A stretch of DNA of 64,000 nt. Source: an uncultured delta proteobacterium. Its GTDB lineage: Bacteria > Desulfobacterota > Binatia > UBA9968. Position numbers and translations under genes: made by a program. This document shows, one piece after another, positions 52,560 to 58,568 of the stretch. The DNA is taken from NCBI GenBank assembly GCA_963816145.1, contig CAWFJP010000030.1, forward strand, positions 32,001 to 96,000. The letters run 5' to 3'. A model generated the notes under the pieces. That model did not search any database and was not told the DNA's origin. It saw only the letters and a list, made by a program, of their open reading frames with translations. Numbering within the stretch: position 1 is the first letter of the stretch; each line of letters begins with the position of its first letter.

Positions 52560-53681
52560 TTAACCATATCTTCGCTGCTCGACGATCACGGGGGCAGCAA
52601 GAACAGCTTGTGCCGGAAAACTCATGAGTACGCGGGTCCCGGAGCCAGACTTGCTGGTAATGCTTAGTTTGCCGCCGACAAGGTCGGCCATACGGCGCGC
52701 CACCGTGAGACCGATGCCCAAGCCCGAAAACGCCCGCTGCGGCGAATTGTCCGCCTGATGGAACGGCTCGAAGATCGTGTCGATCTTGTTCTGCTCGATA
52801 CCGACTCCGGTATCGATGACTTCAAAATCTATTTGGGTACGGTCCATTGACGCGCTGACTTTGACCGCAATTTCGCCCGCAGAGGTGAACTTGACCGCGT
52901 TATTGAAAATGTTCTGAAACACCCGTTCGACCTTGGCGCGGTCGTTGATCATCGACAAATCGCCGTCGGCAAATTGAACGTTGAGTTGCAATCCTTTATC
53001 TCGGATCATGTTCTCGTGCCGTTTTACCGAATCATTGACGATCTCGCGGGCATCGAACTTCTCCACGTTAGCGCTGCTGTCACCGGCATTGAGCGACGTC
53101 ATCCACAACACATTATCGATCAACTCTAGCAGCTCTTCCGAATTGCGGTAGACAGTTTCAAGAACTTTCTGCTGCTCGTCGCTGAGCTTACCGATGACCT
53201 GGTTGAGGAGTAGATAGACAAAACCGACGACCACGCTGAGCGGCGTGCGCAGTTCATGGGAAACGTTGGAGAGAAAGTCGGACTTGACCTGGCGCAGCCT
53301 GGCCTTTGCAGTGCGTCGCTCCAAGCCGCGCCGGACCAAGGAAAGGATATGATTCACGTCGAAGGGCTTGGAGATGTAATCGAACGCGCCTAGGCGTAAT
53401 CCCTCGATAGCCGTGTCGAGCGATCCATAGCCGGTGATAATAATTGCCTCGATATCAGGATCGTGGGCTTTGACCTTCTCCAACACATTGATACCGCTCA
53501 AACCCGGCATCTTAAGATCCAAAGTCACTAGGTCCACGGGATACTGCTTGAGCATCTCGATCGCTTGCGCGCCCCGGTCGGCGACTAGCACATTGTAATA
53601 CGGGTTGAGAATCATCTTGAGCGATTCTCGCGGTCCCATCTCGTCATCGACTACCAGAATGTTCGGTTTGCTAGCATCCAT
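52560..53681 (-). CDS. Cytoplasmic REC-HisKA-HATPase hybrid kinase
   Basis: LVVDDE...VTLDLKMP...SKPF; SHELRTPL; NNAVKFT, DTGVG, GLGIGL. Confidence 0.95.
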   Translation of the reverse strand: MDASKPNILVVDDEMGPRESLKMILNPYYNVLVADRGAQAIEMLKQYPVDLVTLDLKMPGLSGINVLEKVKAHDPDIEAIIITGYGSLDTAIEGLRLGAFDYISKPFDVNHILSLVRRGLERRTAKARLRQVKSDFLSNVSHELRTPLSVVVGFVYLLLNQVIGKLSDEQQKVLETVYRNSEELLELIDNVLWMTSLNAGDSSANVEKFDAREIVNDSVKRHENMIRDKGLQLNVQFADGDLSMINDRAKVERVFQNIFNNAVKFTSAGEIAVKVSASMDRTQIDFEVIDTGVGIEQNKIDTIFEPFHQADNSPQRAFSGLGIGLTVARRMADLVGGKLSITSKSGSGTRVLMSFPAQAVLAAPVIVEQRRYG

Positions 53682-53695
53682 GCCGTTGCTAATTC

Positions 53696-53711
53696 AGCAA
53701 GGCGCATGCCA
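53696..53711 (-). promoter_or_regulatory. sigma54 -24/-12 promoter
   Basis: Minus strand TGGCATGCGCCTTGCT, 15 nt upstream of the hybrid kinase ATG. Confidence 0.65.
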
Positions 53712-53801
53712 CCGGGGAGATTAGGTAACGGCTTGAATTTAGATGGAATTTTTCAGCAAGGAAGGAGTGTTAAGGAAGCTGCGGGCAACAAAAATGTCCA
53801 A

Positions 53802-55211
53802 CTAGGACGATAATTTCACCTCTTCCTCATCGTCATCGTTGGGATTGTTAATCTTGAGTTTTTCGATCCGGTATTTGAGGATGCGCCGGCTGGTGTTGAG
53901 TATCATCGCCGCCTTGGTCTGGTTGAAGCCGGTGCGCTGCAGGGCCTTGACGATCAACTCGCGCTCGAACTCGTCGACGGCGTCGCTCAGCGGCCGCGAC
54001 CCGCTCAACACATCCTCTTTGAGCGTCGCGGTTTGATCCGTCGAGCGCATGCTCGGCGGCAAATCGCGCAGCGTGACGGTTTCCTGCGGTGTCAATATCG
54101 TCAAGCGCTCGATTAAATTTTCCAGCTCGCGAACATTACCAGGCCAAGGGTAAGACATGAAGAAATCCACGACTTCGGGCGACAGGGTTTTCATGGCGAT
54201 GGAATGTTCCTGGGCTTTCAGGCGCAAGAAATGGTCGAGCAATAATGCGATATCTTCACGGCGCTCGCGCAGCGGCGGCAGAAATAAAGCAACGACATTC
54301 AACCGGTAAAAGAGATCCGGCCGGAACTCGCCGTTCTTGGCCATCTGCTCCAGATCGCGATTGCTCGCGGCGACAATGCGCACGTCCACTTTGATTTCGT
54401 CCGTGCCACCGAGACGACTGAAGGTCTCTTGTTCGATGGCGCGCAGGAATTTCGCCTGGACGCCGAGATCGAGTTCGCCGATCTCATCGAGAAAAAATGT
54501 TCCGCCGTGGGCGAGTTCGAAACGGCCGATCTTTTTCTGCGACGCGTTGGTGAAGGCACCACGCTCATATCCGAACAACTCACTTTCCATCAAGTTTTCC
54601 GGCAAGGCCGCGCAATTGACAACCACAAAAGGTTTGGAGCGCCGGTCGCTATTGTAATGAATCGCCCTGGCGATGAGCTCCTTGCCGGTGCCGCTTTCGC
54701 CAGTAATCAACACCGTGCTTTTTTTCGCCGCCACCATGCTCACTGCCTTGAAGACATCGGTGATTTGCTTGGACTTGCCGACGATGAAGTCAATGCCGTA
54801 TTTGCGGCCGACTTCCTCCTTCAAGGTTTCTAACTCGCGCGACAATTGCACTTTTTCAAGCGCATGCTCGACGCGCAGACGAAGCTCGTCCACGTCGAAG
54901 GGCTTAGTCACATAATCGAAAGCGCCGGTTCCCTTGGCGGTAAAAGCCGTCCTGGCGGTATTGATACCGGTCAGCATAATCACCTGGCAATCGGGATGGA
55001 TGGATTTGATCTGCTTGAGCACACCGAGGCCATCGGCGCCGGGCATCATGATATCCAGCAGCACCGCATCAGGCTTATCCTCGCTAACCTTTTGAAGCGC
55101 TTCGTCGGCTGACGCGGCTTCCAAGACACGGTAAGTCTTGTTGAAGACCATTTGCAACGATTGGCGAACTCCCGCTTCGTCGTCCACCACCAATAATAAG
55201 GGCTGGCTCAT
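53802..55211 (-). CDS. NtrC/AtoC-family sigma54-dependent response regulator
   Basis: REC (LLDIMMP), GESGTGKE, ESELFG, GAFTNA, LDEIGE, WPGNVREL, Fis HTH. Confidence 0.96.
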   Translation of the reverse strand: MSQPLLLVVDDEAGVRQSLQMVFNKTYRVLEAASADEALQKVSEDKPDAVLLDIMMPGADGLGVLKQIKSIHPDCQVIMLTGINTARTAFTAKGTGAFDYVTKPFDVDELRLRVEHALEKVQLSRELETLKEEVGRKYGIDFIVGKSKQITDVFKAVSMVAAKKSTVLITGESGTGKELIARAIHYNSDRRSKPFVVVNCAALPENLMESELFGYERGAFTNASQKKIGRFELAHGGTFFLDEIGELDLGVQAKFLRAIEQETFSRLGGTDEIKVDVRIVAASNRDLEQMAKNGEFRPDLFYRLNVVALFLPPLRERREDIALLLDHFLRLKAQEHSIAMKTLSPEVVDFFMSYPWPGNVRELENLIERLTILTPQETVTLRDLPPSMRSTDQTATLKEDVLSGSRPLSDAVDEFERELIVKALQRTGFNQTKAAMILNTSRRILKYRIEKLKINNPNDDDEEEVKLSS

Positions 55212-55212
55212 G

Positions 55213-57078
55213 TCAGTTTTCTTTTCCGTGCTCAACAATCGGGAACTCCATTCTTACAATGTCTTTTTCCGCGTCGGATCGATCCGCGATAAAGCGTCCG
55301 CCATTTTTTTCCACCAGTTGTTTGGCCAACAGCACACGTAGCGGCAGGAGCCCCTCCTCGGGTTGTGAACCGCTATTGCCCAGGTAATGGGAAACCGATC
55401 CCATGCGGGCCCCTTCACGGAGAGACGTGATCGCCAGGACGCCCGGTTGGCTAACGTCGATTTCAATCTCGCTGCCCGTCTTGGCTTCCGCCGTGACTGC
55501 CAAAAGCACGTTTTTGAGTATATAAATCAAATGCTTCTCGTCCGAGCGTATCCGCTCGGCCCGGCCGTTTTTCTTCCAATCGAAGCGAGTTTGCCGCTTG
55601 CTGCATTGGGAACTAATTTCGCCGAGCACGTCTCTGGTTTTTTCCTCGAGCGCAATCGCGCTTTGGCGCGGCTCAGTGAAGTCGGCGAACTCGATCATCA
55701 CTTCCAATAAATCGTCCATCCGTTCGATATCGCCGCCGACCACCTCTTGGAAGCGCGAGCGAAAGTTTTCATCCTGATAACGCTCGCCGAGTAGCTGCGC
55801 GAACGTCTTGATCGTAACCATCGGATTCTTGAACTCATGGGCGAGTTCATGAATCACCAGGTTTAAGTCAACCGATTTGGCATGGCCATTTGATTGCGCC
55901 ACAAGTGCCGGGCGCGAGCCGCCAACATCACTATCAGCACCTGCTGGCGGCACAAACTCGACTAATTCGCTGGCATCGATCGCCTGAATTTCACCACCAA
56001 AATCGAACACCAAATCAGCGGCATCGATCTGGTCCTTAGAACGTAGGGCCATCGTCCGCGCTACGACCGTTTCCAACTCACGCAGATTGCCGAACCATAG
56101 GTACTTGGACAACCGCTCATGGGCCGCCGGTGAAAACGTCGGTTCCCGCACCCCCAATGATCGCGCTAACCGTCGGGCAAAGCTCTGGGCTAATGCCGGG
56201 ATATCCGTCGCGCGCTCGCGTAACGGCGACAAATGCAGCGATAGAACCGCCAATTGGTAATAGAGCCCTTCGGGAAACTCACCACGATAGACCCGCGCCA
56301 ATAGGTCGGCGTTTGCCGTGCTCAGCAAGCGCAGTTCGGTATGCTGTTGGGCCTCGGCGATATACTCCGCCAGCCGCGTCTGCGCCGCGGCTTCACACCG
56401 GTCGAGATTCTCGACGAGCAGTGTGATCGGAGTCAGGTTCGCTGACACGGTCGACCAGAGTTCCTTACGTTTCTCCGCCAGGTAATCCACGTCTATGACC
56501 GCGGCGTTGACCGCGACACAGATGCCGCCTTGCTGCCGATGAATCACCGACGCGACTTGAAGCTGGCCGCAGCCCAGTTCGCCATGAATTAGCAAAGGCA
56601 ATTGGGTCGCCGCAAACCGCTGCACAAGACTTGCCGCGCTACGGCTTAAGAAAGGAAACTCGAGGTAGCGCGAGTCATCTTCGCGCTTGGCCGGCTCCAA
56701 CCATCCCTGCCGTGCGGGAACTCGTTTGCCCCGCGTCAGCAGCTGACCGACTCTTTCCTGCAGCTCGTAGGGATTGAACGGCTTGGTCAAGCATTCTACA
56801 GAATCTGAACTCTCGATCACCCTTGCCGTTGATTTCGACTCGACGAGAAACAGCACCGCAAACGGCAGCCGGCTCGCCAACTGCACTAATCTTCCGGTTT
56901 CCAAACCATCGTATGGCGAAACGCCAAGAATTAACAGGTCGACATCTTCAGAGGCATCGGCCGGTGGCAACCCCTTGGTCCCAAGTGAGCGCTTTGAGAC
57001 TGCGAACTCCCTACTTAGAATCAGAGCCAGTGTTTCCCTGACAACTTCGGATTCATCAATGACTAAGATTCGCTTCAT
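55213..57078 (-). CDS. Pseudo-receiver + degenerate sigma54 AAA+ + HisKA + degenerate HATPase fusion
   Basis: DLLILG (no Asp), GELGCGQ (no Walker A Lys), no GAFTGA, WFGNLREL; intact AHEFKNP; no G boxes. Confidence 0.8.
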   Translation of the reverse strand: MKRILVIDESEVVRETLALILSREFAVSKRSLGTKGLPPADASEDVDLLILGVSPYDGLETGRLVQLASRLPFAVLFLVESKSTARVIESSDSVECLTKPFNPYELQERVGQLLTRGKRVPARQGWLEPAKREDDSRYLEFPFLSRSAASLVQRFAATQLPLLIHGELGCGQLQVASVIHRQQGGICVAVNAAVIDVDYLAEKRKELWSTVSANLTPITLLVENLDRCEAAAQTRLAEYIAEAQQHTELRLLSTANADLLARVYRGEFPEGLYYQLAVLSLHLSPLRERATDIPALAQSFARRLARSLGVREPTFSPAAHERLSKYLWFGNLRELETVVARTMALRSKDQIDAADLVFDFGGEIQAIDASELVEFVPPAGADSDVGGSRPALVAQSNGHAKSVDLNLVIHELAHEFKNPMVTIKTFAQLLGERYQDENFRSRFQEVVGGDIERMDDLLEVMIEFADFTEPRQSAIALEEKTRDVLGEISSQCSKRQTRFDWKKNGRAERIRSDEKHLIYILKNVLLAVTAEAKTGSEIEIDVSQPGVLAITSLREGARMGSVSHYLGNSGSQPEEGLLPLRVLLAKQLVEKNGGRFIADRSDAEKDIVRMEFPIVEHGKEN

Positions 57079-58568
57079 TATCGTGCGCACGGCCATTCGC
57101 TATCGGGCGTATCGGTGCGCCGATGGGCACTTGGACAAAGAATGAAGTTCCTTGCCCCACCGTACTTTCAACCGTGACATAACCGCCATGTTCCTGGACG
57201 ATCTGATGCGATACCGCGAGACCCAATCCGCTCCCCTCATCCTTGCTGGTGAAGAACGGGTCAAAAATATGCTCCAAATTTTCCGGCGGGATTCCGATAC
57301 CGTTATCGCGCACCTCAACTTGAACATACTCTTTAACCAGGTCAGCATTATTTCTGGCAGCGAGACGGGTAGAAATCGATATTGTGCCACCATCTTTCAT
57401 GGCCTGGATTGAGTTCAGAATGAGGTTCATAAATACCTGCTTCATCTGTTCTTTGTCAATCCACACCTTGGGCAGACTTGCGTCAAAATCCCGCTTTATC
57501 TCCACGTTCTTGTCCTTCGCCTGGGCCTCCAAGATTCGCGCGATATTATCAACCACATCGCTGATGTTTTCGGGAGCAACATTGGGCTTAGACGGGCGTG
57601 CGAAGCTCAAAAGGTCGTTAATCAACCCGCAAATCCGGTCAACTTCCTTCAGCGCGAGTCCCTGAAAACCATTGCGAAACTCGGCATCGTCGTAACGCTC
57701 CGGCAAAAGCTGCGTAAACGTGCGAATCGCCACCAAAGGATTGCGAATCTCATGGGCAAGACCTGCCGTGAGTAGACCTAAAGAAGACATCCGATCGGCG
57801 CGCCTCAAGGTCACTTGCGATTGTTTGAGTTCCTGCTCCCGCCTGAACAAACGATCTGCCATCTGATCGAAGGCCTTGGCCAAGCTACCGATCTCGTCAT
57901 CACGGTTGATAGAAACCCGATGTTGTAAATCACCGTCCTCAATACGTTTAGCAGCCAACGTGAGCCGCTCAATAGGCTTTGGTCATTCTTTCTGCAATCA
58001 GATAGATAATCGCCAACCCCGCTAGAAATATGATGGAGGCAACGGCAACGGCCGTAAAAGTAACATTTCTGATATCGTTGAGTATCGGATCGAGATCAAA
58101 GCCTAGGCGGATCCCTCCAAGCTTATCGTTGCCCAGTCTGACTGGTTTGGATATGTCTAGAATTCGTTTGTCATAATCCAAGTCTACCTTGGTTGTCTCG
58201 TTGGACTTGATAATTTGCTCCCCCAGCTCGTCGGTGAATGTAGCAAATAACATCCTTTGATCAGGATGATAGTCACCGACAATTCGCCCATCCTTATCGA
58301 ATATATATGCGTAAGCCACGTTCGGAAGCGCCTTTGCCTCAGAGGCGATCGTTTCAAGCCGGTAAGTATCAAGTTTATACAGCGCCCCGCTTACACTCAG
58401 CTCCATCAAACTGATGCCAACCTTAGCCCTTTCGCCCATTTGCGCTAAGAGCAGGTTTCGCTGGGAACGAATCGTGAGAACGGTGAGCGCACCGACCGCG
58501 GCGAAATAAAAGAGCCCGGCAGCAAGAAAAACCTTGCGTTTGAGACTGAGTTTAATCTCCAAGCTCAT
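57056..58568 (-). pseudogene. Membrane HAMP sensor histidine kinase split by a +1 frameshift (or sequencing error)
   Basis: TM-sensor-TM half (57969-58568) and kinase half (57056-57958; AHEIRNP, NLILNS, DNGIG, GLGL). Removing one A at 57978-57980 gives MTKPIERLTLAAKRIEDGDL, an intact HAMP. Confidence 0.85.

Follow-up and report, generated by a model that had tools for sequence, protein, structure and literature searches.

A fused pseudo-regulator and pseudo-kinase with a conserved HisKA helix, encoded between a sensor kinase and an NtrC-type regulator

In a 64,000-nucleotide (nt) stretch of DNA from an uncultured delta proteobacterium (hereafter the window) we found a gene, here called X, whose product joins three degenerate enzymatic domains, i.e. 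a receiver (REC), a sigma54-type AAA+ domain and a kinase ATP-binding domain, to an intact and nearly invariant dimerization and histidine phosphotransfer (DHp) hairpin of the HisKA type. The gene lies on the minus strand in a conserved four-gene cassette, downstream of a sensor kinase and upstream of an intact NtrC-type regulator and a REC-containing hybrid kinase (REC-kinase). We propose, with a probability of roughly 0.45, that X, as a transmitter without kinase activity, uses its DHp to dock the receiver of the neighbouring regulator as a phosphatase, a histidine phosphotransferase or both, tethered or controlled by the pseudo-NtrC module that precedes it. Two-component pathways are usually read as a kinase plus a regulator, and the X family presents three dead enzymatic domains with a frozen phospho-histidine helix. 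Its parts are of known kinds (pseudo-receiver, degenerate AAA+ domain, ATP-blind transmitter); as far as we have seen, the literature found describes neither their fusion nor the conserved cassette nor how large the family is.

Domain anatomy of X

The open frame of X (55213..57096, minus strand) is unbroken and encodes 627 amino acids (aa), with an alternative ATG at 57096. Orthologues start at the internal ATG at 57078 (MKRILVIDE), giving 621 aa, and this position, also chosen in the original prediction, is likely the translation start; residue numbers throughout refer to the 627-aa frame. The gene overlaps that of the upstream kinase by 23 nt (kinase TGA at 57056-57058), and its own TGA (55213-55215) is followed by a single base and then by the ATG of the NtrC-type regulator at 55211. 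The AlphaFold2 model, built on a 68-sequence alignment, had a mean predicted local distance difference test (pLDDT) score of 85.6 and was divided into six parts, listed here after the gene.

55213..57078, minus strand: gene X, 621 aa, encoding pseudo-REC, pseudo-AAA+ core, lid, linker, DHp and pseudo-catalytic and ATP-binding (CA) domain
56734..57072, minus strand: pseudo-receiver, aa 9-121 (sub-threshold Pfam match, modelled (beta-alpha)5 fold, alignment with neighbouring receivers)
56221..56676, minus strand: degenerate sigma54-type AAA+ core, aa 141-292 (Sigma54_activ_2, Foldseek, motif alignment)
56011..56220, minus strand: AAA+ lid, aa 293-362, well conserved (YLWFGNLxELE; AAA_lid_14 at 66.3 bits; pLDDT about 95)
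55879..55998, minus strand: variable linker, predicted disordered, aa 367-406 (pLDDT below 50; mean identity 0.27; high ratio of nonsynonymous to synonymous substitution, dN/dS)
55684..55866, minus strand: HisKA DHp hairpin of two helices, aa 411-471 (HisKA at 30.4 bits, cut-off 26.9)
55237..55662, minus strand: kinase-like alpha/beta domain, aa 479-620 (no HATPase_c match; Foldseek match to HK853)

The H box of the DHp (AHEFKNP) is intact, with H420 (codon 55837-55839), E421, N424 and P425 all present, and Asn424, four residues after the histidine, stands at what we take to be the position of the HisKA phosphatase residue. This hairpin closely resembles that of the kinase encoded next to it. 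The stretch AHEFKNPMVTIKTFAQLLGERYQDENFR was identical to the adjacent kinase at 18 of 28 positions (counted by eye), and BLASTP aligned the DHp region with that kinase at an E-value of 6e-16 over 136 residues. Across the 7.8-Mb genome the best non-self match of the DHp and CA-like half was again the adjacent kinase (50 bits, E 1e-12), with the sole other match to this half reaching 22 bits. A sequence search of the Protein Data Bank (PDB) returned eight matches at E<=1, all of them histidine kinases, the nearest chain being ZraS (E 4.4e-6), the kinase of an NtrC-family regulator. By these comparisons the DHp of X is a paralogue of the DHp of the cassette's own kinase.

The domain that follows keeps the kinase fold without its ATP site. 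Foldseek aligned the C-terminal half with HK853 (chain 6rh8_A, E 2.5e-12, 227 columns, TMt 0.54), i.e. a DHp followed by a Bergerat-like fold, and pLDDT was at least 90 here except in the lid-like loop 564-577. No Pfam match to HATPase_c was found in X. The N box reads LKNVLLAV, with the second Asn replaced by Ala, REGAR stands in place of the G1 motif DxGxG and LPLRV in place of the G2 motif GxGLG, and an NGG motif is kept.

The N-terminal half resembles an NtrC-type activator that has lost its working residues. Its best Foldseek matches were NtrX (5m7p, E 2.7e-19), NtrC1 and NtrC4 (E 1e-18 to 1e-19), and the AAA+ region matched the AAA+ domains of NtrC1, PspF and FleQ with TMt 0.64-0.71, so that both the core and the lid folds are kept. 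The Response_reg score was 18.9 bits (cut-off 30.2), and G58 (codon 56923-56925; DLLILG) sits where the two neighbouring receivers have their phosphoacceptor Asp, with D14, E15, S87 and K105-P106 kept and conserved in homologues. The AAA+ core scored 56.6 bits against Sigma54_activ_2. Its Walker A motif reads GELGCGQ (Q178) versus GESGTGKE in the neighbouring regulator, its Walker B motif LLVENLD versus FFLDEIGELD, and its Arg-finger region FPEGLYYQL versus FRPDLFYRL, where P275 and Q281 replace the neighbour's Arg residues. X has no GAFTGA loop, which in the neighbour reads GAFTNA, and in the family a median of 44 residues separates Walker A from Walker B, versus about 61 in that regulator. 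No Pfam match to HTH_8 was found in X, and the 40-residue linker occupies the place that the helix-turn-helix (HTH) has in NtrC-type regulators. No NCBIfam model reached its cut-off for X, the best being ntrC at 101 bits (cut-off 558.6), over the lid region only.

Judged by these motifs, X would be incapable of autophosphorylation, of phosphorylation at a receiver Asp, of ATP hydrolysis, of contact with sigma54 and of DNA binding. The original prediction had described a single frame overlapping the kinase stop and ending 1 nt before the regulator ATG, a receiver without its phosphoacceptor Asp, an AAA+ domain without the Walker A Lys, GAFTGA loop, normal Walker B, Arg finger or HTH, a HATPase region without recognisable G boxes, and a DHp that keeps its His and parallels that of the adjacent kinase. 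All of these agree with what we observed.

Conservation, selection and the wider family

To describe the close relatives we used the best 120 matches listed among 90%-identity protein clusters (54-99% identity to X). Nearly all were 612-635 aa long, with two shorter members of 557 and 462 aa, and columns were counted over the 119 members of 555-700 aa. The four H-box residues H420, E421, N424 and P425 were kept in 119 of 119, G58 was Gly in 118 of 119 and Q178 was Gln in 119 of 119. Within the kinase-like domain R560, P585 and R587 were kept in 118-119 of 119. The most invariant stretches of the N-terminal half were beta1-alpha1 (12 of 19 residues across 20 homologues) and the beta5-alpha5 segment CLTKPFNPYEL.

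Selection was estimated by the Nei-Gojobori method on eight orthologue pairs from ten related genomes and the window (genome G205 left out). The dN/dS of the whole protein was 0.12-0.19, a rough value since dS was near saturation (0.9-2.5), as are the following. The lowest range was that of the DHp (0.01-0.07 in the eight pairs), with 0.07-0.22 for the pseudo-receiver, 0.11-0.21 for the AAA+ core, 0.08-0.32 for the lid and 0.11-0.23 for the kinase-like domain, and both linkers stood above the domains. Mean identity to the window over the ten orthologues told the same story, with 0.89 for the DHp versus 0.50-0.67 for the other domains, the AAA+ core being the least conserved folded domain (0.50). 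A check suggested with the original prediction, whether the losses are conserved under purifying selection, came out positive, with close homologues sharing the substitutions at the dN/dS given above.

The family extends far beyond these relatives. A full scan with HMMER, covering 1.84 billion 50%-identity representatives, yielded 143 proteins at E<=1e-30, and among the 150 matches listed 82 were full-length (555-700 aa; 21-56% identity). A second search, seeded with the distant member P0152, gave 615 clusters at E<=1e-40. Superfamily counts are over 310 full-length sequences, i.e. the 119 close members, the 82 representatives and 109 P0152-like proteins, with the query added for the motif count (311). 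His420 was kept in 309 of 310, Asn424 in 310 of 310, Pro425 in 309 of 310 and Glu421 in 300 of 310. The N-box column of the Mg-binding Asn held Asn in 0 of 310, and a GAFTGA-like motif was found in 0 of 311 sequences. Asp occupied the phosphoacceptor column in 21 of 310, and most of these 21 lacked the receiver Lys or Thr.

The Walker A Lys column followed a different course. It held Gln in 119 of 119 in the window's clade, whereas among the 82 representatives it was Lys in 42, Arg in 16 and Gln in 13 (Lys or Arg in 58 of 82), and among the 109 P0152-like proteins Lys in 95 and Arg in 12 (Lys or Arg in 107 of 109). On this distribution three features are old, namely the dead kinase-like ATP site, the missing sigma54-contact loop and the absence of the receiver Asp from nearly all members, and the change from Lys to Gln is a later step specific to the window's clade, because many distant members keep the Lys. 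The losses that had been predicted as a set are thus conserved within the clade, and in the wider family the Walker A Lys is often kept and the receiver Asp occasionally present.

In the P0152-like sister subfamily we also observed the second Arg finger in 97 of 109 members, alongside the Walker A Lys in 95 of 109. At the column of the Walker B Glu, Arg (55) and Asp (23) prevailed in this subfamily, and just 11 members had Glu. This pattern would suit nucleotide binding without hydrolysis.

The genome of the window carries one copy of X, its next-best matches being ordinary activators at 76 bits or less. Besides the window, 18 of the 41 related genomes that were searched had an intact X frame. 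In the samples taken, 15 of 24 genomes of the same genus had the gene, the unpublished genome G205 among them, as did 2 of 5 genomes of one family and 0 of 11 of another in the same order, and in a 201-genome sample of the phylum it was found in four including the window's own, the other three at about 30% identity and from one genus. Source labels of the members include 'Candidatus Binatia', 'Deltaproteobacteria', 'Dormibacteraeota', 'Acidobacteria' and 'Chloroflexota' metagenome-assembled genomes, with no named cultured organism among the labels of the listed members, and in the two nearest clusters of a protein atlas the commonest phyla were Binatota and Myxococcota. A contig scan whose alignment was driven by the generic pattern LAHE[LFI][KR]NP[ML] returned ordinary kinases, with the architecture in a single open reading frame (ORF) in 0 of 80 loci, and thus neither context nor taxonomy for the family; at L015, for example, kinase and NtrC are encoded by two genes, one after the other. 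Database names of members P0001-P0380 ('DNA-binding NtrC family response regulator', 'sigma 54-interacting transcriptional regulator', PilR/AtoC/HydG/FlrC) are misleading, because the members lack the HTH, the GAFTGA loop and, mostly, the phosphoacceptor Asp. The family is thus large (hundreds of 90%-identity clusters), conserved, uncharacterised and mis-annotated as regulators, which bears on the annotation of such genes in metagenome-derived genomes.

A proposed mechanism and its alternatives

The other members of the cassette are as follows.

57056..58568, minus strand: sensor kinase (transmembrane (TM)-Cache-TM-HAMP-HisKA-HATPase), here in two ORFs, 57969-58568 and 57056-57958
53802..55211, minus strand: intact NtrC/AtoC-type regulator (REC, AAA+ with GAFTNA, HTH_8)
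52560..53681, minus strand: intact REC-HisKA-HATPase hybrid kinase, the fourth cassette gene

We compared the loci of eleven relatives, in which the identity of X to the window goes down to 28%. The order kinase, X, NtrC, REC-kinase on one strand was observed in 9 of the 11, including one locus (L118) in which the fourth gene was a weaker match 1.6 kb away. The other two end at contig edges, L109 lacking only the kinase and L119 only the REC-kinase, and are otherwise consistent.

With the anatomy, losses, selection, synteny and DHp kinship observed as described, we infer the following binding and phosphotransfer steps. The working part of X would be its dimeric HisKA DHp. A HisKA DHp that has its H, E, N and P residues can take phosphate off its cognate receiver, trade phosphate with that receiver in either direction or be trans-phosphorylated in a heterodimer. 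Since X has no ATP site, its His would not be chargeable by X itself. The kinship with the adjacent kinase's DHp suggests recognition of the same receiver, so that the DHp of X may dock the receiver of the NtrC-type regulator encoded 1 nt downstream. In one branch the H-E-x-x-N-P motif would strip phosphate off the regulator; in the other His420 would take the phosphate and hand it on, as a phosphotransferase of the ChpT, Spo0B or PhyT kind or as a phosphate sink. Both branches may operate together, and in either X would set the level of active regulator made by the upstream kinase. The pseudo-REC and pseudo-AAA+ half, carried on the 40-residue flexible linker, could tether or gate the DHp by binding NtrC-like or kinase surfaces. 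The invariant beta1-alpha1 and beta5-alpha5 segments (KPFNP loop) belong to what we take to be the face that receivers present to a DHp, which suggests that the pseudo-receiver docks on a DHp, either X's own or the kinase's. Action on the NtrC receiver is the most economical account, because the DHp is extremely constrained, Asn424 is invariant and the gene sits between those of the kinase and the regulator. In HisKA phosphatase activity the His contributes and is not essential, and pseudo-kinases can join networks, according to a review of pseudo-receivers (PMC12632262).

Docking was also modelled by complex prediction on our own alignments, pairing the NtrC receiver (residues 1-125) with two copies of X (residues 405-627). 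This arrangement scored 0.48, versus 0.01 for the best of three controls, with runs agreeing in at least 63% of contacts and a partner pLDDT of at least 81. Among 157 solved complexes 116 attain the mark that this prediction passed, as do 2 of 215 mismatched pairs; passes with a score of 0.60 or less came from only 18 of the 157 solved complexes and from both passing mismatches. The pass may also reflect likeness, because kinase-receiver complexes have already been solved, and we take it as weak support for docking between the X DHp and the NtrC receiver, shifting our estimate little.

Several observations weigh against a DHp-centred action on the regulator. If the kinase were to trans-phosphorylate X in a heterodimer, a conserved H-E-x-x-N-P motif would be expected just as well. 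The pseudo-REC (dN/dS 0.07-0.22) and the pseudo-AAA+ domain are strongly constrained, for which a mechanism that uses the DHp alone gives no account, and the near-saturated dS blurs the selection estimates themselves. X evolves much faster than its cassette neighbours: in loci L110-L115 X was 56-58% identical to the window's copy, where NtrC reached 86-88%, the kinase core 79-82% and the REC-kinase 78-82%, and in the closest relative, L109, identity was 78% for X, 95% for NtrC and 85% for the REC-kinase, with the kinase beyond the contig. Finally, the Walker A Lys or Arg of many distant members suggests that their AAA+ module may bind nucleotide and do something outside the proposed model.

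RetS forms DHp heterodimers with GacS, and X might likewise pair with the adjacent kinase, either inhibiting its autophosphorylation or having His420 trans-phosphorylated by the kinase's ATP-binding domain, which would split the flux. The X DHp, including its hairpin loop (LLGERYQDENFR versus LLPERYDDAEFR), is the closest paralogue of the kinase DHp in the genome, the 23-nt gene overlap is compatible with coupled translation, and kinase and X are adjacent in every locus that shows both. Similarity at the base of the DHp is, however, equally expected if the two proteins merely recognise the same receiver, and we consider such pairing unlikely.

Alternatively, the N-terminal half could be the main part, the dead REC-AAA+ module joining or capping the NtrC dimer or hexamer and blocking or tuning sigma54 activation, with the DHp secondary. 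Mixed rings of activator paralogues are known from HrpR/HrpS and FleQ/FleT. Both the AAA+ domain and the lid retain their folds, for which NtrX, NtrC1 and NtrC4 are the nearest matches, the lid is well conserved, and both the pseudo-REC and the pseudo-AAA+ are under purifying selection. We nevertheless hold this to be quite improbable, the AAA+ core being the least conserved folded domain (0.50 versus 0.89 for the DHp), and the N-terminal half is not specially close to the adjacent NtrC, other activators of the genome scoring higher.

A pure scaffold or sensor of the phosphorylated receiver, with the DHp serving as a binding surface only and a logic like that of DivL, would agree with the death of every enzymatic site. 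Yet the His is kept in all but one of the 310 superfamily members together with the H-box E, N and P, where a helix used for binding alone would be expected to lose its His more often; the retention favours real phospho-His chemistry over pure binding and leaves this explanation very little room. Finally, X might be decaying or have arisen from faulty assembly, for which the frameshifted kinase next door might speak. Local decay is ruled out by the conserved substitutions, the intact frames in 18 of 41 related genomes, the dN/dS of 0.12-0.19 and the independent contigs, and this explanation deserves next to no credence overall: two independent metagenome runs (X2 and X3) gave contig depth in 30 of 30 bins over the region and showed only substitutions within X, the sole listed indel sitting in the kinase, where one of them lacks the extra base.

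A further run (X1), with depth in only 6 of 30 bins, was set aside. A 328-nt soil metatranscriptome contig (X15) identical to the window spans the kinase/X junction (56938-57265); since DNA carry-over is possible, we did not use it as evidence of expression.

We compared X with several known systems. ChpT is a dimeric DHp with an ATP-blind Bergerat domain and no autophosphorylation, as described in PMC3433190. The C-terminal half of X follows the same logic as ChpT and Spo0B, a His-bearing helical hairpin in a four-helix bundle bordered by a Bergerat-like domain that does not bind ATP. It differs from them in keeping a canonical HisKA H box, being a diverged ZraS/AtoS-type transmitter with a whole N-terminal pseudo-NtrC module, and in that no upstream hybrid-kinase receiver is evident as its phosphodonor; ChpT and Spo0B were absent among the eight PDB sequence matches at E<=1. 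DivL has lost its phosphorylatable His, and RetS is a transmitter module reused for binding another kinase. X is like both in that transmitter modules are reused to bind a regulator or another kinase rather than to autophosphorylate, but neither is fused to a dead activator module, and X keeps its His. According to PMC4211667, DivL is a kinase repurposed to sense a regulator in its phosphorylated form. The original prediction had proposed a scaffold or phosphotransferase of 'ChpT/DivL-like' kind, of which the ChpT part, extended to Spo0B, suits the C-terminal half of X and the DivL part misfits because the His is retained. Its further suggestions, a heterodimer with the kinase and co-assembly with or inhibition of the activator's AAA+ ring, belong to the less probable alternatives weighed above.

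In its proposed role X is also like PhyT (formerly PhyP) of Sphingomonas melonis, which sequesters a regulator and transfers phosphate between receivers via a conserved His (PMC5898713). Both are kinase-like proteins with a dual role, proposed in the case of X, and PhyT was once taken for a phosphatase; PhyT differs in being membrane-bound, in having no REC or AAA+ module and in acting in the PhyR/EcfG pathway. With bacterial enhancer-binding proteins of the NtrC/NtrX type X shares the REC, AAA+ and lid folds (best Foldseek match NtrX, 5m7p), and it differs from them in lacking the phosphoacceptor Asp, Walker A Lys, Walker B Asp-Glu, GAFTGA loop, Arg fingers and HTH.

In a literature search that left subscription journals mostly outside its coverage we found no paper on a REC-AAA+-HisKA pseudo-enzyme of the X type and no characterised member, in line with the earlier impression that the architecture had not been characterised. 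If the proposed phosphatase or phosphotransferase action on the regulator is true, NtrC-type sigma54 control would gain through X an inbuilt layer of phosphatase or phosphotransfer action, and X would be a natural pseudo-regulator and pseudo-kinase in one chain.

Promoter and kinase neighbours of X

Two further features were observed between the NtrC and REC-kinase genes.

53697..53711, minus strand: sigma54-type promoter, TGGCAT-N5-TTGCT, upstream of the REC-kinase gene
about 53784-53801, minus strand: conserved near-palindrome (GGACAAATTTGTTCC in relatives), just past the NtrC stop and about 85 nt upstream of the promoter

The promoter was seen in the window and in 9 of the 10 relatives' regions (10 of 11 in all, the window plus L109-L117), 16-30 nt from the REC-kinase start codon where the spacing is readable and farther in L116. 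Near-palindrome and promoter are conserved together in 10 of 11 regions with a varying spacer between them, and they are probably an enhancer site and NtrC-dependent promoter. Matches to the sigma54 consensus were not enriched over the whole window (69 versus 70.8 expected), and only the conserved REC-kinase site was used. The conserved promoter indicates that the cassette's NtrC likely targets the REC-kinase gene in a sigma54-dependent manner, and this would open a possible feedback route.

In a more elaborate scheme the pseudo-receiver would dock the DHp of the real kinase as an unphosphorylatable substrate while the DHp of X docks the receiver of the real regulator and moves phosphate via His420, the likely acceptor being the receiver of the sigma54-dependent REC-kinase. 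The four-gene cassette would then form a His-Asp-His-Asp feedback relay. We regard this scheme as doubtful; if true, X would represent a new class, a fused pseudo-regulator and pseudo-kinase acting as a phosphate router, widespread in uncultured soil and wetland bacteria.

The upstream kinase, which the original prediction had treated simply as adjacent, is indeed present, and in this assembly a single surplus base, in a CC run near 57981 (57969-57990), breaks it into two ORFs. The sole independent contig that crosses this site (X2, soil metagenome, 1359 nt) lacks the extra base and restores a single TM-Cache-TM-HAMP-DHp-CA frame, so the split is probably an assembly error or a strain variant. 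The upstream kinase frame was also interrupted in L114 (genome G218) and L117 (genome G229), with frames of 341 and 223 aa, respectively, when followed up to the first stop upstream, that of L117 opening past the H box. The breaks in both may be assembly indels or real.

Between about 57850 and 59600 the window differs from L110-L119 in all that lies upstream of the kinase DHp (TM-Cache-TM-HAMP in the window), with a PhnD-like binding protein encoded next door. GC content falls from about 0.55-0.58 to 0.45-0.50 in this region, and the DHp-CA core is about 80% identical. By this comparison the sensor half of the kinase is exchanged in the window strain while X stayed in place, an observation that has no bearing for or against heterodimers of X and the kinase. 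In the relatives the kinase is about 720-740 aa long, and its N-terminal part appears, by eye from sequence only, to consist of multiple TM segments followed by a GAF domain.

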